The notes below the pieces were generated by a model, which ran no database searches, was not told the DNA's origin, and saw nothing but the letters and a program-made list of their open reading frames with translations. A program made the position numbers and the translations under genes. Shown here piece after piece: positions 11,301 to 28,547 of a stretch of 38,337 nucleotides of DNA. The stretch is from a virus. The stretch's first letter is position 1. Each line of letters starts with the position of its first letter. The DNA lies in IMG/VR virus record IMGVR_UViG_3300037467_000331, positions 1 to 38,337 of that record. One strand, written 5' to 3'.

Positions 11301-11309
11301 TCAGCCGTT
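11288..11309. other. Hairpin spanning the convergent xis and int stop codons
   Basis: aacggctg-tgtaat-cagccgtt with no flanking T-run. Confidence 0.4.
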
Positions 11310-12528
11310 AATCTTCTATTATTCCATTCTTAATTTTGTCTAATCTATCAATCCACTTTTCATAGATTTCTGCTTGTTCCTTCACGTAGTCATAAAGGTC
11401 ATAAACTTCTTGGATCTGCGGCATACTGTGACCAATCATCATTTCGGCTACATCTCTACGCTCAGTGAATCGACTGAAATTAGTACGTGCTGTACGTCTT
11501 AGGTCATGCATAGACCAATGAGTCATATCTTCTTTTTTGAATCGCTTAACCCAGCCAATTACACTTGCAGATAAGGCAGTTGATGCTGAGCTACTCATGG
11601 CTTCATCTTTTTCGCCATTATTGAATAAGTACTTCCCTTTGCTTAACTCCATTGCCTCTAATATAAGATCTTCCATTTTTGGCAATATTGGGCGAATTAG
11701 TGTCTTATCATTTTTATAGCCTGTCTTATGGTTTTCAGGTGGAACTAACCAGACTTTCTTTTTTAAATCGAAATGTTTTTTCTCAGCTAAACGTAGCTCA
11801 CCTTTACGACATCCATAAATAAGGCAAAGTTGAATAAAGATTTTATTCTTCTCAGTTAATCTGGACCATTTAAGACATTCAAATAAGACTACTAATTCTT
11901 CATCAGTTAATACCCGTTTAGAAGGTATATAAGTAATGTTTAAATCTTCCTTAGGAAAAATATCGGCAAGTACATTAGTTAATACTAGTTTTCTTTTTGC
12001 TGCCCATTTCAACATTTGTTTTATGTTTGATAAAAGTACCTTGGCTGTGCCGGGCTGTTTAGCTGCTAGATTCTCAAATAACTCAAGCCAATGCTCAATA
12101 TCAATGCGCTCAATTGGATATTTACCTAATTGAGGAGATATATGATTCAAATAAGCGCTTTTAACTTGATCATGAAGTTTCTTATTAGGTTTGCAAAATG
12201 ATTCATACCATTTGTCAAATAGCTGATCTAATGTGAGCGGGTCAATATGTTTATTTCGCTCTACCAGAACTTCAACTTTAGGGTTTTTACCTTGCTCAAG
12301 CAATGCCCGCAATCTATTAGCTTCTGCACGGGCATCTTTCAAACTGATATTAGGATATGAGCCTAAATCTAGACGATGCGGCTTACCATTGAAACGGTAG
12401 CGAAGTTGGAAGACAATTTTACCTTTTGCTGATATCCTTGCACTCATTGAGTCTCGGTCAGCAACTTCTTCTACTTTGTCCCGAACCTTGCCATTATTAG
12501 CTTTTAGCCAAGCTTCTGATAGAGCCAT
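11308..12528 (-). CDS. int: Tyrosine integrase, P4-like (N-terminal arm-binding DUF4102-type domain)
   Basis: N-terminus LSEAWLKANNGK...ISAKGKIVFQLRYRFNGKPHRLDLGSYP. Catalytic region GCRKGELR, HDLRRTARTN, GHS and VYDLYDY. Confidence 0.92.
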   Translation of the reverse strand: MALSEAWLKANNGKVRDKVEEVADRDSMSARISAKGKIVFQLRYRFNGKPHRLDLGSYPNISLKDARAEANRLRALLEQGKNPKVEVLVERNKHIDPLTLDQLFDKWYESFCKPNKKLHDQVKSAYLNHISPQLGKYPIERIDIEHWLELFENLAAKQPGTAKVLLSNIKQMLKWAAKRKLVLTNVLADIFPKEDLNITYIPSKRVLTDEELVVLFECLKWSRLTEKNKIFIQLCLIYGCRKGELRLAEKKHFDLKKKVWLVPPENHKTGYKNDKTLIRPILPKMEDLILEAMELSKGKYLFNNGEKDEAMSSSASTALSASVIGWVKRFKKEDMTHWSMHDLRRTARTNFSRFTERRDVAEMMIGHSMPQIQEVYDLYDYVKEQAEIYEKWIDRLDKIKNGIIED

Positions 12529-12544
12529 TATTAAAACTCGCTAG

Positions 12545-12830
12545 AATATGTACACAAAGAGCATCAACAAAAGAATGTGTACACGAATATGTACGCAAAC
12601 CACGTTTGTTGAGGTTTGTCATTATGTTCTAGTTAGTTATAGATAAACAATATAATGGTGCATATTTTATGGTTTTAAGTATTCAGTATGTTCTAGTTTG
12701 ATATAATACTTTCAATAGACTGATATTTGTGCTAAGAATACCTGAGTTATCTATATTTACTATTATTAATCATTAACTTATATACTAGTTTAATAGCTAA
12801 TTTTTATTGTATGTACACCATTCTGTACAC
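12545..12830. repeat. attP-like region with arm-type direct repeats
   Basis: TGTAC(A/G)C occurs in the same orientation at 12549-12555, 12578-12584, 12590-12596, 12812-12818 and 12824-12830. The 12-mer tatgttctagtt occurs at 12623-12634 and 12687-12698. The tract between is very AT-rich. Confidence 0.55.
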
Positions 12831-12955
12831 ATAAAGAAAATTAGCTATTTTTTTTGCTTTCAAGTTGTCATAACAATAAGAACATTTTCCGACCAAATGC
12901 AATCCCTACCACGACACAACTTGACTCATCCATGTTTATCCACAGGTTTTTAAAT

Positions 12956-13010
12956 TTGAATTTATTCAGGCTCAGCTCTACCATTTATTTTGAATTTGTA
13001 ACGTTTTCAA
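12956..13010 (+). promoter_or_regulatory. Candidate umuC promoter and palindromic operator
   Basis: TTGAAT (12956-12961)-17 nt-TACCAT (12979-12984). The palindrome TTGAAtttgtaacgttTTCAA at 12990-13010 ends 8 nt before the ATG. Confidence 0.45.
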
Positions 13011-13017
13011 GATAACC

Positions 13018-14310
13018 ATGAGAGAGCGAATTTTTGCATTAGTCGATGTGAATAACTGTTATGTCAGTTGTGAGAGATTCTTTCAGCCTGAACTTATCGA
13101 TAAGCCAGTAATTGTGCTTAGTAATAATGACGGCTGTGCAGTCGCTCGATCAAATGAGGCCAAAGAGCTTGGCATACGGATGGGTGCCCCACTCTTCCAA
13201 ATTCGAGACATTGTAGAAAGACATAATGTGATTGTGCTCTCAAGTAACTACACTGTCTATGCGGAAATGAGCAAGCGGTTCATGAGTATCTTGCGAAACT
13301 ATGTCACTGAGCATGAACAAGAGGTTTATTCTATTGATGAGTGTTTTCTAGATCTGACTGCCTATTTAAATAATTATGACCTAACTACCTATTGCCATGG
13401 CATGAAGGAAAGGATTTGGAAATGGATAGGCCTTCCAGTATGTATTGGAATTGGCAGATCAAAGACCGAAGCAAAGATGGCTAACCACATAGCAAAGAAA
13501 AACAAACCCTTTGATGGTGTGTGTAATCTAGTTGCAATGGATCCTTGCAATAAAGAATCATACTTATCATCTATAGATGTGTCTGAAGTCTGGGGAGTTG
13601 GCAGACAGCATACTAAAAAGCTAAATACTATGGGAATAAAGACAGTTTTAGACCTTGCCAGCGCATGCCCAGAACATATACAGCAACAGTTTTCAGTAGT
13701 CATGAAGCGAACGGTGTATGAACTGCAAGGCATATCATGCATAGAGATTGAGCATACACCACCAAGCAAAAAACAGATCATTTCATCTAAGTCATTTGGA
13801 CAGAAAGTTACTGAGCTCATAGACCTTCAAGAAGCTGTTTCGCTATACATGCAAAATGCTGTGGTGAGGTTAAGAAAAGATAGACTATTGTGCGGCTGCA
13901 TTATTGTTTTTGCTCAGTCAAACCCATTTGATAAAAACAGACCTTTCTTTAATAGGTCACTTTCTCTACCAGTTGCGGTGCCGACTGACAATGTCTTAAA
14001 GATGGTACAAATAGCCACTTTTCTAATAAGACACCTATATGCACGGGGAATTGAATATAAGAAGTGTGGAGTTATTTTGACAGGTTTAGAGCCTAAAGAC
14101 ACCTTTAACTATGATCTGTTGACAGACTGGAGCAAGGTCGAGAAGGATGAGAATTTGATGACAACTTTAGAACAAGTTGTCGATAAGTTTGGAAAACATA
14201 AAATCGCTGTGGGTAGTTGTAGATTACCAAATAGAGGCTGGTCAATGACCAGAGATAAGCTAACCCAAAATTACTTTAGCTGGGAAGGCTTACCTAAGAT
14301 TAATAACTAA
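13018..14310 (+). CDS. umuC: Y-family translesion DNA polymerase, UmuC-like (Pol V catalytic subunit), orphan
   Basis: FALVDVNNCYVSCERFF, PVIVLSNNDGCAVARSNEAK, YSIDECFLDL and the VWGVGR HhH region, over a full-length 430 aa. No umuD-size ORF is adjacent. Confidence 0.9.
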   Translation: MRERIFALVDVNNCYVSCERFFQPELIDKPVIVLSNNDGCAVARSNEAKELGIRMGAPLFQIRDIVERHNVIVLSSNYTVYAEMSKRFMSILRNYVTEHEQEVYSIDECFLDLTAYLNNYDLTTYCHGMKERIWKWIGLPVCIGIGRSKTEAKMANHIAKKNKPFDGVCNLVAMDPCNKESYLSSIDVSEVWGVGRQHTKKLNTMGIKTVLDLASACPEHIQQQFSVVMKRTVYELQGISCIEIEHTPPSKKQIISSKSFGQKVTELIDLQEAVSLYMQNAVVRLRKDRLLCGCIIVFAQSNPFDKNRPFFNRSLSLPVAVPTDNVLKMVQIATFLIRHLYARGIEYKKCGVILTGLEPKDTFNYDLLTDWSKVEKDENLMTTLEQVVDKFGKHKIAVGSCRLPNRGWSMTRDKLTQNYFSWEGLPKINN

Positions 14311-14311
14311 T

Positions 14312-14431
14312 CTACAAAGCCTTAACGCAAATACCCACTTTAACCGACGTGTTAATAGTGTGAGCTGTGCAACTTGAGAAAAGCAGACACAGCATTGTGA
14401 TGATCGATGCAACTTTAGTACGTTTACACAT
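14312..14431 (-). CDS. Unannotated 39-aa putative lipoprotein directly after the endolysin
   Basis: The ATG lies 5 nt after the endolysin stop. MCKRTKVASIITMLCLLFSSC has a positively charged n-region, a hydrophobic core and a lipobox-like FSSC. The mature part is only 18 aa. Confidence 0.35.
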   Translation of the reverse strand: MCKRTKVASIITMLCLLFSSCTAHTINTSVKVGICVKAL

Positions 14432-14436
14432 ATAAG

Positions 14437-14991
14437 TTACTTCTTTAAAAATAGTGCTCGTTCCGCTTCACGACGACGGACTAGACCAGGTAAAACTTTA
14501 CCTCCTGCCTTTTTCCATGCAAGAAATTGATCAGCAGCACCTTGGTAATCACCTTTGTTAAGCAACTTTAATAAAGTAGAACCTTTAAAAGCACCTGAAC
14601 CAATGTTATAGGTCAATGAAACCAAAGCATCAAATTGATTCTGAGTTAAAGGCACAGTGACGGATTCATTCACAGTCTTTTCAAATTTAGCTAGGTCATG
14701 TTTAAAGTAAGATTTTGCTTGCTCTAATGTGCAAGTGTCGCCTTCCTTAACTTTTACGCCATTTGGATAAACTGTGGTGCCTATACCTATGGTCCATATC
14801 CCAACACCATCGTCGTAAGCTTTCGTTCTAGTGTCTTCAAAGCTAGTGATTAAATTAATACCAATTTCACTTGTGGTTTTCCCGCCTGGTGCAAGTTTGT
14901 CGACAACTTTGTTTAGATCGTCCACTTGTGCTTGTGTGAGTTTTCCGCCAGCAATTACTCGGGCAGCGTCAAAGAAGTTTTTAACTGTCAT
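14437..14991 (-). CDS. Endolysin, GH24 (T4-lysozyme-type) muramidase
   Basis: Catalytic region LITSFEDTRTKAYDDGVGIWTIGIG plus NQFDALVSLTYNIG. There is an N-terminal extension of about 45 aa. Confidence 0.9.
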   Translation of the reverse strand: MTVKNFFDAARVIAGGKLTQAQVDDLNKVVDKLAPGGKTTSEIGINLITSFEDTRTKAYDDGVGIWTIGIGTTVYPNGVKVKEGDTCTLEQAKSYFKHDLAKFEKTVNESVTVPLTQNQFDALVSLTYNIGSGAFKGSTLLKLLNKGDYQGAADQFLAWKKAGGKVLPGLVRRREAERALFLKK

Positions 14992-15181
14992 TTGTTTCTA
15001 CCTTACTTCTATCGTGGCCAAAGTAAGAGTTGACGATTGCACCTGTCCAACCAACTACCGCACCAAGTAAAATATTTACTAAATCTTTATTTTCTTTTGG
15101 AATATCGAAAAAGAATAAAAAGACTAAAATCAACAAAGCCAAGGCAAGTACGGCTATAGTAATAATCTGCTTACTCTCCAT
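14981..15181 (-). CDS. Holin-like or antiholin-like membrane protein with 2 TMDs (66 aa; alternative 71-aa start at 15196)
   Basis: Two hydrophobic helices (IITIAVLALALLILVFLFFF and ILLGAVVGWTGAIV) and a charged C-terminus. Two in-frame ATGs lie 5 codons apart; GGAGGGG precedes the second. Confidence 0.5.
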   Translation of the reverse strand: MESKQIITIAVLALALLILVFLFFFDIPKENKDLVNILLGAVVGWTGAIVNSYFGHDRSKVETNDS

Positions 15182-15422
15182 CGCACACCCCTCCATAACC
15201 CTTCATTCTTGCCTTGTGTTCTAGTTCTTCACGACGATTGCGTCGAAATTGAAAGTAAAAATTCACCAAGAAACCAAGAATTGTAATTATTAAACCGATG
15301 GCGGTAGCTGCGCTGACCTGAAACACCCAGCCAAATACAGTTACACCGCCCCCCGCATACATTGATTTAGTGGCTACTGTGGACGCTGCCACCTCAACCA
15401 TATTTGCTGCCTTATCAGACAT
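15171..15422 (-). CDS. Holin (83 aa, 2 TMDs, basic C-terminus)
   Basis: GGGVTVFGWVFQV and AIGLIITILGFLVNFYF, then RRNRREELEHKAR. First gene of the lysis cassette after a terminator. Confidence 0.55.
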   Translation of the reverse strand: MSDKAANMVEVAASTVATKSMYAGGGVTVFGWVFQVSAATAIGLIITILGFLVNFYFQFRRNRREELEHKARMKGYGGVCDGE

Positions 15423-15445
15423 GCCGTTCCCCTAACTTATTGGCA

Positions 15446-15480
15446 ATAAAAAAGCCCTAAGCTATTTAAAGCTAGGGCTT
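15446..15480 (-). terminator. Intrinsic terminator between the tailspike and the lysis cassette
   Basis: aagcccta/tagggctt stem followed by a T-run on the minus strand. Confidence 0.6.
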
Positions 15481-15499
15481 ATAAAGATTGATTGTGTGA

Positions 15500-18400
15500 T
15501 TAGCTAAGCTTGATTGTTGCTTGTGCATAGCCATTCACAACAGAACAGAGCAAACCACCGTCACTGACTATTTCGCTGTACAATGTAAAGTTAGTATTGC
15601 CATCTTGTACTGTTGCTGTTTTACCGTTAAACATGCTTGGCAAAGGCAATTTAAGCATTGATGCATTTTGATGTATATCCAATACGACATAGACCGCACC
15701 GTTATCTTCATACCAAGTGAACACCGTTGATTCTGGCAAAAGGTTCGGATTGAACAAAGAGCGGTAAGTAATCGTGTTCACAACAGTATTTAGATTAGTC
15801 ACTAAAGCTTTCGGATACATCTTACGGGTTGGTCCGTTAAAAAATCCTGCATCTGTGGTATTTTCACGAATACTTGGCTGTGTTGCACCACGACTTAAGC
15901 TATAGCCGACTACATGGCCAAACTCTTTAGTTGCACCGTTTTTGACAATCTGGGCCATTCGGTCAGGTGGATTTGTTGCATCTAACCAGTTTGCCTTGAG
16001 CATGCTAATAACATCAGTTACAGACGTAACATCTACAACATTACTCAAGTTGTATGTATTTGAACCCACAGTGACAGGATTCATTTTAGGCACATAGTAA
16101 AGCAGTGTTTTACCAGTGTAGTTGAGCGGTAGAGCTTGAGTTAAACCGGCGAAGTTAAAATTAATATTCGATTTCTTCTGAAATTGAGTATTAATAGTTA
16201 AAGCGCCATTCTGCACATACTTATAGCTAACTTGTACATTCACATCATAGTCAATTGCCGGAACATTCAGCTCTTGTTCTGTTGTAGTACCTACATGAGC
16301 TTGCAGATAACTAATAATCGCAGGCACATTCATAATATTGTATGTGTCAATAAACTCGACACTTTCGACATCATAAAAGCCTGAAGCCGTAATTGTCTTA
16401 TAGCCGTCAACAACAATCTTTTTAACGTGATTGTTAATCGCGGTATATAACTGAGTAATTGCATCACTAGCAACCGCAATACTTGATGTATTAGTAGCGC
16501 CACTAACATGGGTTAAAGTATTACCAGTCAATAAGGTATTGTTGTACACCCACTGTGCAGACGTACCAGTATTATCAGAAACAATCCACAGTTTATTCGC
16601 GTCAACAATGCGAACTAAAGTATATTCGCGTGTGCCGTTGGACCACTTCGAGCCTACGTCAATATAGCCTTTTCCATGACTTGTCTGTGTGATTTCATGA
16701 ACAATGAAAGCACCGTGGTTTGCTCCAATGTATGTACCGTTGTAGTTCATCGGCGCAGCATCATCACCATGGTTTACAACCAAAGTTCCCGCATTATATG
16801 CAGTAACTAAGTTTTCTTTAGCGGTAGACTTGGGAATGGTTTTAATCTGATATGGGTTAATTACATTGTTATTCCACTTAGTAGTCGTTCCATATTGCAC
16901 AAGTTGGACCATATCAACAGTGTCACTGAAAGGCGTTCTGATATATGCGTACGTACCATCAATATAGAGTGTGAATGTATTGCCCGCTGTAACAACTGTT
17001 GTGCCGCCTCCACTGTCAGGTGTGTCAATCAATGCCGATGGTTTTAACCAAAGCATTTCTTGGCCGTTTGGATCATAAGCAGCATAATCAGTGCGTTTAA
17101 AACCTAACTCAAGCTGCATACCATTTACTAAGTTATTAAAATCAGTAGTCGTATGAGCCGCATAAACAATCATCATTGAGATGAAAGCAATAGTAGAGTT
17201 ATCGGGGATTGTGAAAGTTACTGTTTTGTCACTATCTGCGTATGTAATGCCGGTTGGTGGATTTGGGTTAACTACTTCACCAGCTGAACCCTGTGCAGCA
17301 TCCATACCCAAAAACACACCATTTTTATCATATGTATAAATGATTCGTTTGAATGCAAATGATGTACTTAAAGGCATCCAAAAAGTATATGTGCCTCCAG
17401 CCTGCACTGCCTGTTTTCCGAATGCGATACCATTTGCAAACGTTACCGTTGCACCAGTCTGGAAGCTAATTAATTTGGCATCTTCTGCTAATGCTTTGTT
17501 AAATTGATTTTTCCCAATAGTTTTAATAAAAGATGCCAATAACAAGTTTTCATTCCTCGTATCTCGTGGCGAAATAAACTCTGCGTTCGCTCCATCTGCA
17601 ATGAATGGGCTGTGAACGTACATTTCACGTGTGCTGGTGGTGAGCATGTTCACGATTAAGCGAATCTTTGTGGCTCCAGCTGTCACGCTTGGTACATTGA
17701 CTTTATATGTCTGCTTGGTGACTGCTGCTGTTACGCCTGTTGCTGCGTAATGTGAAGAAATAAGAGAGCCAGCATCATTACGCTGTTCAATTCCGACAAC
17801 ACCGTTTGAACCGCTTGTTAAACCCTCAACAGTGATGGAACCAGAGAAATCTCGTAGAAACTGAGATGCTGGAAATTCCCAGTAAACGGTAATTGGCGAA
17901 CCAGTTGATGCACTGACGAGCTTTAATTGCTTTAGTCCGTTCCGATATGGATATGTAGCTGTACCAACAAGAACTGTTGGAGCAGTTATAAAAGTGACTT
18001 GTTTAAAGTCTAGTTTGTTTGGGTTTTGCGGCCGGTTTGATTCAACAGTTCGACGTTCTTCTAAAGATGCATTTAGATAGTTAAGTCCAGTAAAAACCCA
18101 AGATGTGCCATTCCAACGGCAAATATCACCGTTATCAAGCATTGCATTTTGACCTACTGGCTTATCAGTAATTAAATCTAGAGCTGCTTTGTTTGCAGCA
18201 CCAATCATATTGCCAGCGTTTGCTACTGCTGCATCTACTGTTCCTTGGATAGATCCAATTGCCGCATCTACTAATGTCTGGGTTTCTTCTTGTAGTTCGT
18301 TGAATTCGGTTTGTATGGTTTGACTTAATGCGTCAAAGTCACTTTGAACTACAGCCTGTTCGACCAACAAATTATCTTCTATCAGGACCCCATCACGACT

Positions 18401-22471: not shown

Positions 22472-22502
22472 ATAAAAAAGCACCCTAAGGTGCTTTTTTT
22501 TC
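22472..22502 (-). terminator. Bidirectional intrinsic terminator
   Basis: aagcacc-ctaa-ggtgctt flanked by an A-run and an 8-nt T-run. It overlaps the stop of the 70-aa gene. Confidence 0.7.
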
Positions 22503-22697
22503 TAGTTCGTGTATCCTCTCTAGAAGGTGATTCCTTGCTTCTAACTCGCTCTTAAAAGCATCATCAATATCCTCGAAACGTTTTTTAAATACATCCAAAT
22601 TATATTGATTGGTTTTTGTTAGATCATCTACTTTAGCCTTAAGATTCATAAGGCCAACAATAAGCAACACACATATTATTAAAAGCGCAGTAACCAT
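22485..22697 (-). CDS. Small membrane-anchored coiled-coil protein (70 aa)
   Basis: N-terminal TMD (MVTALLIICVLLIVGLM) followed by a charged helix. GGGGGT RBS. Confidence 0.45.
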   Translation of the reverse strand: MVTALLIICVLLIVGLMNLKAKVDDLTKTNQYNLDVFKKRFEDIDDAFKSELEARNHLLERIHELEKKAP

Positions 22698-24061: not shown

Positions 24062-24714
24062 TAGGTTACTCCTGCCTTCCTGTTATTCATATAAGCTGAG
24101 CCAAGTGTTCCAAGCTGCTGTGCTGCATTCGCCCATGCATTACCACTTGCAATTGTTCCTGCGGCTGAAGCATTTGCACCAGCCATGGTATTGTTTGCAA
24201 TAGCCTGACCAGTTTGAAGACCAGCATTACCAGTTTGAGCTGCGGCATTTTGACCAACACCAACCAAATTGGCTAAACGGTTATATCTGTTGGTTTGATC
24301 TGCATTAAAGCGGTTATAAGCGTTTGAATACTCTTGACTTGCAAAGTCCTGTCCATAGTTGTTTAGAGCTTTAAGAGTAGCTCCACTCAACAAACCACCT
24401 TGAGAAGCCGCACCTGATTGAATTGAATTTAGGCCTTCATTCAGTCTGAATTTGTATGATGGATCGTTGTAAATGTCCTGACCATTGAATGTTTGGTTGA
24501 AATAACCATTCTCACCCATCTGGCCCATTAATTGATTTAGTGCAGTACTTCCCGCCTCTCGATATGGATCTAAGTCCTTGCGAGTCTGGTCATACATGTC
24601 CTTTTGAACTTGTGTAGCTGCATCCGCACTTTTTGCTTGTTTTCTTGCTGCGCTACTTGATGCGGCAGATGATAATGCTGCCCCACCAATAGCAGCTGCT
24701 GCTGCCCATGGCAT
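24061..24714 (-). CDS. Internal virion / ejection protein (217 aa)
   Basis: Ala/Ser/Gly-rich N-terminal hydrophobic segment and an Asn/Gln/Gly-rich body. Call based on position. Confidence 0.45.
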   Translation of the reverse strand: MPWAAAAAIGGAALSSAASSSAARKQAKSADAATQVQKDMYDQTRKDLDPYREAGSTALNQLMGQMGENGYFNQTFNGQDIYNDPSYKFRLNEGLNSIQSGAASQGGLLSGATLKALNNYGQDFASQEYSNAYNRFNADQTNRYNRLANLVGVGQNAAAQTGNAGLQTGQAIANNTMAGANASAAGTIASGNAWANAAQQLGTLGSAYMNNRKAGVT

Positions 24715-24716
24715 AA

Positions 24717-25103
24717 TTAAACCTCCAACAAGTGGTGCTCTTCACTTACATCTACCTCACCAGAACGTGAAATGTTGTGAATGCAGTAAATAATCGTGTC
24801 TGGCTCAAGACTCATGAATGTATGCTTAACATTTGCAGGAATCTTAATTCCTACAGGAGCAACATAATCACCAGTGAAAACTCCATCTTGCCAAACACGT
24901 ACTGAGCCATGAGCAAGCATTGACATGTGTTCATATGAATGTGAATGCTGAGGAATAAACATCCCTTCATGCTTGATATGCATCTGTTTGGTGAAGATGT
25001 CATCTGCTATATAAATTTCAGAGTTTTCTTCAGGCGCATCACCTTCAGCAACCGGCACAAATTCAATTTGATCTAAATCGTAAACGTCTTTTAAATTAAG
25101 CAT
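24717..25103 (-). CDS. Single-domain cupin protein (128 aa)
   Basis: Cupin motif 1 GMFIPQHSHSYEHMSMLAHG and motif 2 GIKIPANVKHTF. It overlaps the upstream gene by 13 nt. Confidence 0.65.
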   Translation of the reverse strand: MLNLKDVYDLDQIEFVPVAEGDAPEENSEIYIADDIFTKQMHIKHEGMFIPQHSHSYEHMSMLAHGSVRVWQDGVFTGDYVAPVGIKIPANVKHTFMSLEPDTIIYCIHNISRSGEVDVSEEHHLLEV

Positions 25104-25684
25104 TTTGCTTTTTCTCTCTGTGTCCGGATGCAGACAATTAATGTGATTCTGTCTTGATTGCTATTGTTCTCAACCCAATGATTTTTATGGTTGTCAAAAA
25201 GCCAACACTCGCCAACTTTCGGATTAAGGGCTTCAGTAATTCCTTCATGGTCACAGCAGAAATTTGCCCCTTCTTCACTTTGTAGGCTGATGTAATACTT
25301 ATCAAAGTAATCAACATGCCAACTTGAATCAGTGTGAGGTGCGATGCCATGATTTGGAGGGATTCGGGTTATCAAAACCCCACCCAACATTTCACCCTCA
25401 ACCATTGCCATTAATTTAAAAAGAATCGGCTTGATTGAAGGTAGTGCATCAAATGCGGGGTACCAAACTGGTAAATGCGGATCATTAAAACCAGTTAAAT
25501 CTCCAGCATCTAAATATGGCTTTACGTCGTTGTAGCGCACCCAAATATCTGACATTTGTGAGTGAGGTGTGTTTTCGGCAGTTCTGCGTAAATTATTTGC
25601 ATCCCACAACTGTGGATTCGCTTCCAATTCTTGCATTAAAGATGAAACATCAATTCCATCAGCAATTTTTTTAAAATGTCTCAT
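25091..25684 (-). CDS. Aspartyl/asparaginyl beta-hydroxylase-family 2OG/Fe(II) oxygenase-like protein (197 aa)
   Basis: RIPPNHGIAPHTD...YYISL...GECWLFDNHKNHWVENNSNQDRITLIV follows the Asp_Arg_Hydrox pattern (PH.D...FD...H.v.N.s..R..L.v). Confidence 0.65.
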   Translation of the reverse strand: MRHFKKIADGIDVSSLMQELEANPQLWDANNLRRTAENTPHSQMSDIWVRYNDVKPYLDAGDLTGFNDPHLPVWYPAFDALPSIKPILFKLMAMVEGEMLGGVLITRIPPNHGIAPHTDSSWHVDYFDKYYISLQSEEGANFCCDHEGITEALNPKVGECWLFDNHKNHWVENNSNQDRITLIVCIRTQREKAKCLI

Positions 25685-25806
25685 GGAGTGGTTGCCTCAT
25701 TCAGTTTTACTAAAAGCTTTGTTACTTCATCAAAGTAGATGCGCCAAGGGAGTGTCATCTTCCCGTTTTCATACATCGGATGATCATAAGGAGGGGTTAG
25801 ATTCAT
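25681..25806 (-). CDS. Unannotated 41-codon micro-ORF coupled between the hub gene and the oxygenase gene
   Basis: MNLTPPYDHPMYENGKMTLPWRIYFDEVTKLLVKLNEATTP. Its ATG overlaps the upstream TGA (ATGA) and its TGA overlaps the downstream ATG (ATGA). AAGGTGA lies upstream. Confidence 0.4.
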   Translation of the reverse strand: MNLTPPYDHPMYENGKMTLPWRIYFDEVTKLLVKLNEATTP

Positions 25807-27209
25807 TGGCTCACCTTTGCCTTCGCGCCAAGTACTACAAGCCTTGATGCATCTGTAAACCTCAAACGAAAAACACGATTAAATGACTGGCCAAGGCGTT
25901 TGAAGATTAATCTCTTGTCATATTCACCAATTCCGCCTAAATCCATCTGACGGGAATAGGACCAAGTTCGACCCCTGTTGTCCGACCAATCCAAAATGAT
26001 TTGAGGTTTTATGTTTGTTTCTTGCCCAACTTGAGCCGAGACCTCTAGATGATGGAATATCCATCGATCAGTACTTGGATTGACTACAGGAGTAATACGC
26101 TCACGGACAATAGTTTCACCATCATCTGTATTACTAGATTGAGTTAGTTGATAGATTTTGCCGTTCTGACGGTCGCCAACTAATTGTTGTCCACTAAAAA
26201 AACAATGAACAAACGCTCGATGATGCTCATGAAGATATGTTTTTGGATTGTAGTAACTACGCTCATGCCACATTTGAGTAGTTGAGTCATAACACCATGT
26301 CTTCTTAGCACTAGGGAATGTCATTAACAGGAATGCGTGTCCATTTTCCTGATAAGCAAATCCATATGCATCCGATATGCTGTTATAAGTAGCTATATCA
26401 CTCTCGATTGCATGATTGGATATTCTTAATGTTGAATACCCTTCTGTCATAACAATCTGACCCTGTCCATGCTCAGTTCGACTTACCCAAGCCAAACTGC
26501 TACCAAATCGACAAACAGACGCAGGAGCAATACATCCAGTTGGAATAACAGCACCGCCCATGCGTTGGAATGGAAGGTCTTTGTTATTGGTTGAACCCCA
26601 AATTTCAGTAGTTCTTTCCCCAATTAGCCAAAGCTGACCATTGTTCTCTATAGTCCTTACAAGATTGTCAGACTTAGCCTCAGCAGTGGCATAACTCAAT
26701 GCAGTTGTTTTAGTTGAGAGTAAATCAGACCATTGGATACGACCAGATTGGGGAACTGTCCAAATAAAACGTGAATCAAGTACCGTTACATCTGATGCCC
26801 CAAAGAAATCGCCAAGTTCTAATTTAGTGAGAACACTAGTTTTGAGGTCAAAACTGTATGTATTGTTACTTACAATCATTACTTGAACAGAGTTATCAGC
26901 AAAGTAGACACGACCAATGCCAGTGATGTCACCAAGCTCTTTAACTGTATTATCAGACTTGATTGAAAGTAATTTTTGTCCAGCTACAACTAAAAACTGG
27001 TCACTCATCGCATACATGCCACGAATATAACTATCAAACTCAAATTTCTTAATTAAACCTGAGGTTGGGAGCAATGCGGCAACTTGTGGCGCATTCCCAC
27101 TTTCAACCACTTGAGGGTAAAGATTTAATGTGCGCTGGCAATCAACAGACCAGTCTTTTAGATGATATGATTGCCCAACAATAGGTATATCAATGATAGT
27201 ACTCGCCAT
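25803..27209 (-). CDS. Tail hub / packaged-DNA stabilisation protein (P22 gp10-like, 468 aa)
   Basis: Trimmed to MASTIIDIPIVGQSYH. Size and position match P22 gp10 (472 aa). The N-terminal pattern is recalled from the phage stabilisation protein family. Confidence 0.6.
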   Translation of the reverse strand: MASTIIDIPIVGQSYHLKDWSVDCQRTLNLYPQVVESGNAPQVAALLPTSGLIKKFEFDSYIRGMYAMSDQFLVVAGQKLLSIKSDNTVKELGDITGIGRVYFADNSVQVMIVSNNTYSFDLKTSVLTKLELGDFFGASDVTVLDSRFIWTVPQSGRIQWSDLLSTKTTALSYATAEAKSDNLVRTIENNGQLWLIGERTTEIWGSTNNKDLPFQRMGGAVIPTGCIAPASVCRFGSSLAWVSRTEHGQGQIVMTEGYSTLRISNHAIESDIATYNSISDAYGFAYQENGHAFLLMTFPSAKKTWCYDSTTQMWHERSYYNPKTYLHEHHRAFVHCFFSGQQLVGDRQNGKIYQLTQSSNTDDGETIVRERITPVVNPSTDRWIFHHLEVSAQVGQETNIKPQIILDWSDNRGRTWSYSRQMDLGGIGEYDKRLIFKRLGQSFNRVFRLRFTDASRLVVLGAKAKVSQ

Positions 27210-27888
27210 AACATCTAACTCCGACAGGTAAATCATTGCTTGAATATGCTGGAACTGAATTACTTGATTTAAGCATTTCAATTGCATTGTCTTGGTTCTG
27301 AACTAAGCGCATTGAAGGCTCTGCACCAAACATTGGAGCGATTTCTAGGGCTAGGGTAAGCTCTAGCGGTCGTTTATAATTTGGGGGGAATTGAAGCTCG
27401 TCTTTTGGCTTTAATTTGTGAGGTAACGAATAGGTTTTAAGAATTAGAGTTTTAGCTGTTTCTAAAACATGAAACTCCCAATTTGGATAGTCTTTGCGAT
27501 ACCACACAGGCACATAATGACGATTAGAAGTATTGTTCAAATCTCGAATGATTTTAATCTCGCAATCATCCAACCAAGCAGTATCAGAAATCATGGATAT
27601 CTCTGACTCAATGTCTGGCAATGAAGTCACAACCTCATCACAGCATGTCACTTGATAATTGCAGCACTTATCATCAACCACGCCAATGTAGTAAATTCCT
27701 GCGCCTTTTGTTAATTCAAGAGTTAAGAGATTAGATTTATAAACATACAACTTACTTGTTGCCCATTGTGCAAGAAGCCCCTCAAGAGCTTCTATTACAT
27801 CCATTAATTCATCACCTGAAGCACTTTCACCACTAGCCAAGATTCCGAGGTGCTTCATTGCATTTTCTGCGATTTTGCTTACGTTCAT
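27190..27888 (-). CDS. Head-to-tail adaptor-type virion protein (232 aa)
   Basis: Trimmed to MNVSKIAENAMKHLGILASGE (GAGGAAG RBS). It lies between the coat region and the hub gene. Confidence 0.45.
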   Translation of the reverse strand: MNVSKIAENAMKHLGILASGESASGDELMDVIEALEGLLAQWATSKLYVYKSNLLTLELTKGAGIYYIGVVDDKCCNYQVTCCDEVVTSLPDIESEISMISDTAWLDDCEIKIIRDLNNTSNRHYVPVWYRKDYPNWEFHVLETAKTLILKTYSLPHKLKPKDELQFPPNYKRPLELTLALEIAPMFGAEPSMRLVQNQDNAIEMLKSSNSVPAYSSNDLPVGVRCYGEYYH

Positions 27889-27935
27889 TTCTTCCTCTGG
27901 TCCATGCTTCAAGAATTAGTGCTTGAATTAATCGC

Positions 27936-28547
27936 TCATTCGTTGTTAGTAGTGCCATATTCACTATCAAGCACCAATTTAACTAATGTGTCTTTGCCAT
28001 CACGTGAGCCGTATTTAATGACTTTTTCATCAAGTACTGCCTTCAACTCGTTGGCATCCATTGCGGAATACTTAAGTTGAGCATTCTCTTTTTTAAGTTG
28101 TTCACGCTCTTGATATACAGCGTCATATACTTCTTGAGGCACGCCACTTGCTGATGGTGCTGCTGCAATCTCTTCTTTAAGGCGATTGACTTCACCTTCG
28201 AGATTAACAATCACTTCTGCATGCTGGCCTTCAAGCGAGGTGATTTGTCCTTGTGCTTTTTCAAGCTCAAGGGATTTTTCACCTAACTGCTCTTCGGTTT
28301 GTGTTAGCTTTTCAGCGATCGCATCAAATTGCGCAAGGGGCACATATGCGCTTAAATCAATTTCTTCAGGTTCATTTGAAGTTTTTACATCTTCAGGGCC
28401 TTCTTCGGGCTCGGCTTCAACAAGATCCAAATAATCTACATAACCAGTGCTACGAAGATGTGCTTCATGTTCTTCACCGTCTGCAATGACATGCTCATGC
28501 ACCTGCTTGTCACCACGGTATAGCGCTTTAGGGTATTCATCTGACAT
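27936..28547 (-). CDS. Acidic coiled-coil protein with a C-terminal HeH/SAP-like motif (203 aa)
   Basis: Acidic N-half and a central coiled coil. The C-terminus MDANELKAVLDEKVIKYGSRDGKDTLVKLVL resembles an HeH/SAP fold. It follows the coat gene. Confidence 0.5.
   Translation of the reverse strand: MSDEYPKALYRGDKQVHEHVIADGEEHEAHLRSTGYVDYLDLVEAEPEEGPEDVKTSNEPEEIDLSAYVPLAQFDAIAEKLTQTEEQLGEKSLELEKAQGQITSLEGQHAEVIVNLEGEVNRLKEEIAAAPSASGVPQEVYDAVYQEREQLKKENAQLKYSAMDANELKAVLDEKVIKYGSRDGKDTLVKLVLDSEYGTTNNE

Follow-up and report, generated by a model that had tools for sequence, protein, structure and literature searches.

What are two genes for redox enzymes doing between the tail genes and the ejection-protein genes of a short-tailed phage? 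The question is raised by a 38,337-nt stretch of viral DNA (IMG/VR virus record IMGVR_UViG_3300037467_000331, positions 1 to 38,337; hereafter, the window), which belongs to a P22-like temperate phage. On its minus strand, the gene of a gp10-like tail hub is followed by a 41-codon open reading frame (ORF; hereafter, the micro-ORF), a gene for a 197-aa oxygenase, a gene for a 128-aa cupin and the genes of the ejection proteins, all of them translationally coupled. A preliminary description of the sequence had read the micro-ORF and the two enzyme genes as one cassette filling the plug/needle slot of P22-type genomes; its coordinates, the ATGA overlaps at both ends of the micro-ORF and the 13-nt overlap of the enzyme genes all hold. 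Here, we found that the oxygenase and the cupin are a conserved two-enzyme pair and not part of a trio, and that they occupy the slot of internal virion protein A (IVP-A; T7 gp13 / P22 gp14), directly upstream of the gene for the first ejection protein, internal virion protein B (IVP-B). The micro-ORF is in the needle position; that the enzymes are in the T7 gp13 / P22 gp14 slot had been missed in the description.

The two proteins are a predicted 2-oxoglutarate oxygenase and a four-His cupin

The 197-aa protein matched the Pfam family PF05118 (Asp_Arg_Hydrox) above its gathering cut-off, with an E-value of 1.1e-10 (Table 1). More than 1,140 relatives were found among clusters at 90% identity, and PF05118 was present in all but one of the 120 that were listed. 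The predicted metal ligands H117, D119 and H169, together with R179, which is predicted to bind 2-oxoglutarate (2OG), were invariant in alignments of 25 and 30 sequences, including the rows down to 27-42% identity. The AlphaFold2 (AF2) model, with a predicted local distance difference test (pLDDT) score of 92.6, adopts a double-stranded beta-helix (DSBH) fold, and Foldseek matched it at E-values of 1e-9 to 1e-7 to L-proline cis-4-hydroxylase, a nucleoside-antibiotic beta-hydroxylase, AspH and PHD2 (4p7w and 6n1f among them). These results confirm the earlier placement of the protein in the Asp/Arg hydroxylase family with its metal ligands in place. The top structural match (E 1e-9) was L-proline cis-4-hydroxylase, whose substrate is free proline, and the fold is equally close to free-proline and nucleoside-pathway hydroxylases and to protein Asp/Asn beta-hydroxylases.

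Compared with known members of PF05118, such as human AspH, LpxO and L-proline cis-4-hydroxylase, the oxygenase has the same DSBH fold, HxD...H triad and 2OG-binding Arg, but it is a minimal single domain of ~190 aa that carries neither the TPR domain of AspH nor the membrane anchor of LpxO. The link to the lipid A hydroxylase LpxO that had been drawn from the sequence stands at the level of the family and fails at the level of the LpxO equivalog, NF033391, which gave 13.5 bits against a cut-off of 500 (E 0.027) over residues 129-186 only; we rejected LpxO membership.

The 128-aa protein was below the gathering cut-off of Pfam Cupin_2 (16.1 bits versus 27.2), and three fusion relatives, P0309, P0353 and P0340 (numbered as in our representative search), do exceed it. 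Its identification as a cupin with both metal motifs nevertheless stands, on the conservation of four His and on the AF2 model, a small beta-barrel monocupin (pLDDT 89.1). The metal site consists of H53-x-H55-x3-H59 and H94; H53, H59, H94, C107 and H109 were invariant and H55 was conserved in at least 90% of the sequences. Foldseek matched the model at E-values of 2.5e-5 to 1e-4 to KdgF, the manganese cupin TM1459 and a cellulose oxidative enzyme (9bwi), and its structural matches in BFVD included the proteins that Ralstonia phage Firinga and Sphaerotilus phage R1 encode in the slot. An HMM (hidden Markov model) of the cupin, run against 1.84 billion representatives, retrieved 638 clusters (50% identity) at E<=1e-10. 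Sequence searches of the PDB returned weak matches only, the best for the cupin being the cellulose oxidative enzyme (E 0.0018). Among 50,697 phage records, tblastn with the four-His cupin as query obtained no match, and a megablast search of phage records with the region was equally empty.

The cupin shares with TM1459, KdgF and the cellulose oxidative enzyme a single barrel of ~110-130 aa and the H-x-H-x3-H...H spacing, and this spacing equals that of the His set named in the PDB titles of TM1459 mutants (H52, H54 and H58). It differs from them in that identity is 13-20%, in that it adds the invariant C107 and H109, and in that it is paired with, and sometimes fused to, a 2OG oxygenase. The 13-nt overlap with the oxygenase gene is a derived state: the 98%-identical relative (L024; L numbers denote the loci compared here) has an ATGA overlap, and a change of TGA to TGC in the window adds three codons.

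Because both proteins have hundreds of homologues with invariant ligands, their ORFs are not chance ORFs. Each is a new member of a known superfamily, and both look active, since the ligands are invariant across relatives and the models, which are confident, have 2OG oxygenases and metal cupins as their matches.

The oxygenase and the cupin form a conserved pair in the IVP-A slot

We scanned viral contigs with peptide patterns as seeds (67 loci from the oxygenase seed and 72 from the cupin seed), classified the ORFs with HMMs and removed duplicates. Because the scans were seeded with patterns, the counts that follow measure the association of the two genes with each other and with their neighbours, not their frequency among all podoviruses. 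A cupin directly followed the oxygenase in 79 of the 95 evaluable oxygenase genes; in the remainder, the oxygenase was followed directly by IVP-B (8), by a GNAT protein and then IVP-B (2), or by something else (6). Seen from the other gene, an oxygenase lay immediately upstream of 85 of 97 four-His cupins. The overlapping start and stop codons of the pair were conserved in relatives. A scan of genome contigs gave only six prophage loci, as the seed patterns are strict.

The gene after the pair was a homologue of IVP-B wherever it could be recognised. The slot position, downstream of the tube or hub genes and directly upstream of IVP-B, was found in the window and ~70 non-redundant loci. It was kept even though the oxygenases are only 27-60% identical and the capsid and tail modules differ: the arrangement was present in P22-type Paraburkholderia prophages and also in a 62.9-kb contig of non-P22 type, which has a different capsid type and a T7_gp14 Pfam match followed by an SLT protein.

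The IVP-A slot has been described as holding a small non-structural gene needed for internal virion protein assembly, namely T7 gp13 with homologues in P22 (gene 14) and epsilon15, for which HHpred gave a match to acetyltransferases; in the phiRIO-1 group, an unrelated family replaces the IVP-A gene (Hardies et al. 2016, PMC4819975). The occupants in P22 and T7 are the DUF2824 (P22 gp14) and Phage_T7_Gp13 (T7 gp13) proteins, and no P22 gp14 homologue was detectable anywhere in the window. The window enzymes resemble gp13 and gp14 in their position, in their small size and in being cytoplasmic-looking proteins with enzyme-type folds. They differ from them in that a single GNAT-like protein is found in T7 and P22 and a DSBH oxygenase plus a cupin, both with complete redox-metal sites, in the window.

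The slot also holds fused enzymes, GNAT proteins and degenerate cupins

Beyond the pair itself, several combinations of the same families were found. Among cultured phages, only PfAn1 (Pseudomonas) and DC33 (Limnohabitans) have the oxygenase, and in both of them it is followed by a GNAT gene and then by IVP-B. In the representative search, P0309 and P0353 were divergent single polypeptides with Asp_Arg_Hydrox followed by Cupin_2, and P0269, P0289 and P0333 were cupin-GNAT fusions (in P0269, Acetyltransf_1 scored 37 bits against a cut-off of 20.7). Two of these, P0353 and P0333, were located in the slot, ahead of an IVP-B-sized gene in both cases; one of them directly follows a hub-sized gene (488 aa), and two small genes separate the other from the hub. 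P0380 and P0389 (241 and 219 aa) were bicupins, tandem forms of the slot cupin. The P0353 fusion lies on a 68-kb viral contig (L160:8001-8927 and 11642-16927), on which a giant ORF of >4,600 aa lies two genes downstream; this ORF has SLT, InPase, LPD1 and helicase domains and is of the polyvalent ejected-protein type.

A degenerate cupin was found in the same position in other phages, and in cultured podoviruses it is the slot's only occupant. An Acinetobacter baumannii prophage (L076) carries there a 173-aa protein that is a remote cupin homologue (hhalign probability 92%, E 6.5e-7) in which H53 and H94 are lost, and homologues of this protein occurred in 68 phage records. Gp43 of Ralstonia phage phiAp1 (hhalign probability 93%) is flanked by tail tubular B on one side and by "internal virion protein A" on the other, and gp12 of Vibrio phage 234P9, labelled "short tail fiber protein", directly precedes "DNA ejection"; overall, the remote cupin homologues in the slot had hhalign probabilities of 92-93% and E-values of 3e-7 to 7e-7. 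These proteins belong to phrog_12032 ('short tail fiber') and have the cupin fold minus two of the four metal His (L076:10119-10640, L079:4974-5426 and L078:5878-6393, from Ralstonia, Vibrio and Acinetobacter phages), H53 being replaced by K or A and H94 by K or R, or H94 being gapped in the L076 alignment. The 'short tail fiber' label on cupin-like slot proteins is probably an annotation artefact. The phrog_12032 proteins are like the window cupin in descent and in position before IVP-B, and they differ from it in the loss of two metal His and in the company they keep: a degenerate cupin was never beside an oxygenase in the sample, whereas the window cupin has all four His and an oxygenase. 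Among the 88 oxygenase-adjacent cupins, 85 kept the four His and the other 3 were gapped there, so that every fully covered one was intact.

Taken together, GNAT proteins and degenerate cupins either exchange combinatorially with the oxygenase and the cupin or are fused to them.

The pair is embedded in the late operon and is exchanged as a cassette

The adaptor, hub and micro-ORF region of the window is closely related to the A. baumannii prophage, and comparison by blastn showed the two to be 89.7% identical from 25691 to 28097 and 74% identical from 24473 downward, whereas the stretch in between, 24474-25690, had no similarity. The prophage replaces the dissimilar segment with the gene of the 173-aa cupin-like protein with its degenerate metal site. 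The first ~80 codons of IVP-B (24474-24714) fall inside the swapped segment; this part of IVP-B could co-adapt with the slot occupant, or the change could be ordinary divergence.

We considered whether the swapped genes are a moron, that is, an independent lysogenic-conversion cassette, and rejected this. Promoter-like sites numbered 16 against 21 expected from shuffled sequence, and none flanked the cassette; no terminator-like site was found on the minus strand between 28588-28568, after the coat gene, and a hairpin at 22474-22499; and the GC content was flat (0.38-0.43), without deviant composition. The enzymes are embedded in the virion/ejection operon, as the preliminary description had it. 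Its further claim, that virion proteins and enzymes are produced in stoichiometric amounts, is not implied by translational coupling.

What the two enzymes may do

We tentatively propose that the oxygenase and the cupin are an enzymatic module for the maturation or assembly of ejection proteins, a possible account and the one that we prefer. Both enzymes would be late products, synthesized in the cytoplasm alongside the ejection proteins. With Fe(II), 2OG and O2, the oxygenase would hydroxylate a side chain in an ejection protein or in a neighbouring tail protein, and the four-His cupin would either catalyse a second step on that substrate, again dependent on a metal, or bind what the oxygenase has produced. 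The modification, or a chaperoning effect, would be needed for the loading or the function of the ejection proteins, and the enzymes themselves would not be major virion components, being non-structural like T7 gp13.

Several observations weigh against this proposal. The hhalign probability of the cupin profile against P22 gp14 and T7 gp13 was 0.1, and single-sequence hhalign gave no similarity between the GNAT domains of the slot and gp14 or gp13; the acetyltransferase assignment of gp13/gp14 by Hardies et al. could not be reproduced here. Because no such similarity was reproduced, the analogy to gp13/gp14 stands on position and on the published HHpred result. An alignment of 11 IVP-B sequences revealed no evident residue specific to the oxygenase-bearing phages. 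The virion design can do without the pair, which is missing from P22, from T7 and from the close A. baumannii relative. The slot tolerates cupins without two of the four His, for which reason the ancestral role of the cupin may be non-catalytic. Finally, because the best structural match is a free-amino-acid hydroxylase, a small-molecule substrate would, on the predicted model, be equally compatible with the oxygenase fold.

The last point leads to an alternative that we regard as unlikely, namely that the pair serves host-directed auxiliary metabolism by modifying, in the lysogen or late in infection, a host small molecule or lipid (e.g. through hydroxylation of an envelope precursor or of a free amino acid), and merely sits at a recombination-permissive module junction. 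The match to L-proline cis-4-hydroxylase, the patchy distribution and the clean cassette swap against the close relative would fit such a role, and the authors of the DC33 paper list the oxygenase as an auxiliary metabolic gene (AMG; PMC12195039). A metabolic passenger would, however, not be expected to hold the same position across phages with oxygenases of 27-60% identity and differing capsid and tail modules, to be without a promoter, terminator or GC signature, or to be fused or linked to the slot's GNAT protein; and the persistence of a degenerate cupin in the slot of lytic T7-like phages is hard to explain in this way.

Rather unlikely, too, is that the enzymes are packaged and ejected, acting as low-copy internal virion proteins that oxidatively modify the host envelope (lipopolysaccharide, capsule or peptidoglycan) at entry. 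The genes do lie within the block of ejection-protein genes, with which they are translationally coupled, muralytic domains are present in the downstream ejection proteins, PF05118 includes LpxO (the weak match at E 0.027), and the cellulose oxidative enzyme is both the best PDB profile match of the cupin and one of its top Foldseek matches. Yet the similarities of the cupin are at the general fold level only (TM-score ~0.5-0.6), and the LpxO equivalog clearly failed. An ejected oxygenase would also need Fe(II), 2OG and O2 in the periplasm, where the supply of 2OG is problematic; no signal peptide or hydrophobic anchor was seen on reading the sequences, no predictor having been run; and the syntenic T7 protein is reported to be non-structural (PMC4819975).

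We consider it improbable that both proteins are non-catalytic assembly chaperones, in which enzyme folds were exapted as scaffolds for loading the ejection proteins and the conserved His and Asp residues do no more than hold a structural metal. The slot's acceptance of cupins that lack two His would suit this, as would its acceptance in T7 and P22 of a GNAT-like protein for which catalytic activity was never shown (PMC4819975). What speaks against it is the invariance of the 2-His-1-carboxylate triad and the 2OG-binding Arg over >100 diverse sequences, together with the full set of four His in every fully covered oxygenase-adjacent cupin, a pattern expected of selection for catalysis.

The micro-ORF is a reduced post-hub gene and does not travel with the enzymes

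A Shine-Dalgarno-like GGTGAG precedes the micro-ORF, its ATG shares ATGA with the hub stop, its TGA shares ATGA with the oxygenase ATG, and the coupling to neighbour genes is conserved in relatives. As had been anticipated, the frame is conserved and uninterrupted, being open in six contigs of two sub-lineages that are ~45% identical, with a ratio of nonsynonymous to synonymous substitution rates (dN/dS) of 0.05-0.32; judged by these comparisons, the micro-ORF is a real gene under purifying selection.

A profile built from the micro-ORF peptides matched the N-terminus of the post-hub gene elsewhere (L008:5296-5682, E 1.3e-6); the post-hub genes reached in this way by HMM and jackhmmer are 83 to ~240 aa long. 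A jackhmmer search started from the micro-ORF converged on 24 proteins of 39 to ~240 aa with the motif (K/R)LEPP..EP...G..(S/T)..W..(F/Y)F, and 19 of the 24 start at -3 to +51 nt from the hub stop. Among weaker, single-pass HMM matches, several post-hub genes were tail fibres with a Collar domain, a ConA-like lectin domain or membership in PHROG tail-fibre families. The sole database relative of the 41-aa peptide itself, 92% identical, is in the A. baumannii prophage L076, in which the micro-ORF comes after the hub and is followed by the 173-aa protein and then IVP-B; an oxygenase is absent there. The micro-ORF was present without both enzymes in a further locus (L077) as well; it is confined to the closest lineage, and >90% of the enzyme pairs have no micro-ORF. 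The expectation that the three genes travel together was accordingly not borne out. Because the blastn boundary against the A. baumannii prophage falls just after the micro-ORF, we place the latter with the hub and not with the enzymes. On present sequence comparisons, the micro-ORF is a post-hub needle/fibre gene reduced to its N-terminal motif and unrelated to the enzymes. The proposal that its product is a precursor tailored by both enzymes, in the manner of ribosomally synthesized and post-translationally modified peptides, had in its favour the adjacency and translational coupling of the three genes in the window, and it is scarcely credible given that precursor and tailoring enzymes are not co-inherited, that the peptide has its homologues in the N-termini of tail-fibre-type post-hub genes, and that the reading-frame relation of peptide and oxygenase is not conserved (a 4-nt overlap in the window versus a 1-nt gap in L009 and L010); we rejected it.

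We also rejected a frameshift fusion of the micro-ORF and the oxygenase, by which the enzyme would end up on the hub: a slippery site is absent, and the frame relation is -1 in the window versus +1 in L009/L010.

With regard to the needle, phmmer of P22 gp26 against the window ORFs found no match, in agreement with the earlier remark that no gp26-like needle gene is recognisable, and no similarity between gp26 and the micro-ORF was detectable in the post-hub set either (E 11). The micro-ORF is like gp26 in being the gene directly after the hub, and by analogy its N-terminus would dock in the hub. It differs in length (41 aa versus 233 aa for gp26) and belongs to another N-terminal motif family, common to Collar- and lectin-domain fibres. 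In some relatives the needle slot is empty, with no gene after the hub, and in the loci where the hub abuts the oxygenase no plug motif was found fused to the hub C-terminus. The micro-ORF product probably docks in or plugs the hub, and it may act as a minimal tail plug.

In many relatives, a conserved gene of ~110 aa (phrog_20100, function unknown) lies between the post-hub fibre gene and the oxygenase (L008:5675-6004, L005:7669-8001 and L002:7660-8004). This gene is absent from the window.

Organisation of the late operon

The window phage carries an integrase. Its host is probably an Acinetobacter, because the GC content is ~0.41 and the DNA of the adaptor, hub and micro-ORF is 89.7% identical to that of an A. 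baumannii prophage. The late operon is contiguous on the minus strand and runs from the small and large terminase through portal, scaffold, coat, a 203-aa protein, adaptor and hub to the 41-aa ORF, the 197-aa oxygenase, the 128-aa cupin, a 217-aa ejection protein and a 441-aa protein, and ends with a lysozyme-like protein, a 750-aa protein and fibre/spike genes. The coordinates of the features discussed are collected in Table 1.

Table 1. Features of the window around the enzyme pair, with strand and supporting evidence
Feature	Position	Strand	Evidence
Tail hub, P22 gp10-like, 'head closure Hc3'	25803..27209	-	phrog_578 E 2.6e-141; phmmer vs P22 gp10 E 3e-8
41-aa micro-gene in the needle (gp26) position	25681-25806	-	ATGA overlaps at both ends
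2OG/Fe(II) oxygenase, Asp_Arg_Hydrox family, 197 aa (predicted)	25091..25684	-	PF05118 42 bits vs cut-off 22.6
Four-His monocupin, 128 aa (predicted)	24717..25103	-	QHSHSYEH and PANVKH motifs; AF2 model; Foldseek
First ejection protein IVP-B, T7 gp14 / P22 gp7 type, 217 aa	24061..24714	-	phrog_598 'DNA ejection' E 4e-50
Second ejection protein, P22 gp20 position, 441 aa	22736..24061	-	phrog_33352 E 2e-140
Swapped cassette vs A. baumannii prophage (oxygenase, cupin and IVP-B codons 1 to ~80)	24474..25690	.	blastn vs L076

The hub ORF as called mechanically spans 25803-27287 and overlaps the adaptor gene by ~100 nt. Since the PHROG match begins at residue 30 and the relatives, which carry Pfam Phage_stabilise, are 468 aa long, the true start is probably the ATG at 27209, giving a product of 468 aa. 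The close homologues of IVP-B gave weak Pfam matches to P22_gp7 and T7_gp14, and its N-terminal M-x-W-Ala/Gly-rich segment could be aligned with T7 gp14 and P22 gp7. The second ejection protein is syntenic in five of the loci compared (L006, L008, L010, L024 and L076).

Between the second ejection protein and the lysozyme-like gene lies a 70-aa ORF (22485-22697, minus strand) with an N-terminal membrane-like segment, the counterpart of which in the A. baumannii prophage is an 83-aa gene in the same place (L076:12648-12899). This ORF is followed by a hairpin of 11 perfectly matched bp, flanked by runs of A and T (22474-22499), which gives a terminator-like site inside the ejection operon. Outside the late operon, a 430-aa protein that matches phrog_1268 'DNA polymerase' (E 1e-174) adjoins the integrase (window 13018-14310, plus strand, and 11308-12528, minus strand); it is possibly a Y-family / UmuC-like cargo gene.

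Implications for podovirus ejection

The slot and its tolerance of alternative families have already been published, and the two-enzyme occupant is an alternative that we did not find described. Our literature searches returned no publication on an oxygenase or a cupin in the IVP-A slot or on the pair itself, no precedent for a PF05118 protein in a phage ejection module, and nothing relevant on PfAn1 or on the proteomics of phiAp1 gp43. The nearest published parallel is the prediction that beta-hydroxylases modify tail-collar proteins in cellular bacterial operons (Iyer, Abhiman, de Souza, Aravind 2010, PMC2938197). As in those operons, a PF05118-type hydroxylase is linked here to phage-tail-derived proteins that are its proposed substrates, and in L034 and L035 a Collar-domain fibre is encoded two genes upstream of the oxygenase. 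In contrast, the published operons are cellular and include sulfotransferases and PhyH-family enzymes, the conserved neighbour here is an ejection protein and not a collar protein, and the window phage is without a collar domain.

The present findings correct two annotation habits, namely the widespread use of "short tail fiber" for the cupin-like slot protein and the listing of the oxygenase as an auxiliary metabolic gene. They also show that a needle-slot gene can shrink to its N-terminal motif, and the micro-ORF may serve as a useful minimal system for the closure of the hub channel. To our knowledge, the loading and deployment of ejection proteins in podoviruses are poorly understood, and we know of no mechanistic explanation for T7 gp13 and P22 gp14, both of them needed for infectivity. 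The position of the pair next to the ejection genes, here and in many uncultured short-tailed phages, hints at enzymatic tailoring of ejection proteins, and the finding that in hundreds of phages this slot holds an enzyme pair with intact active sites yields a testable hypothesis, namely that the slot encodes protein-tailoring chemistry. In its widest form, which we offer as a speculation on the unlikely side, the pre-ejection slot would be a general tailoring-enzyme slot, in which GNAT-like gp13/gp14 proteins, four-His cupins and 2OG oxygenases would all be catalytically active and would modify ejection proteins covalently (acetylation, hydroxylation or further oxidation), a change required before these can be loaded into the capsid or build the trans-envelope channel. 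If this were true, the production of infectious particles in oxygenase-bearing phages would depend on O2 and 2-oxoglutarate.

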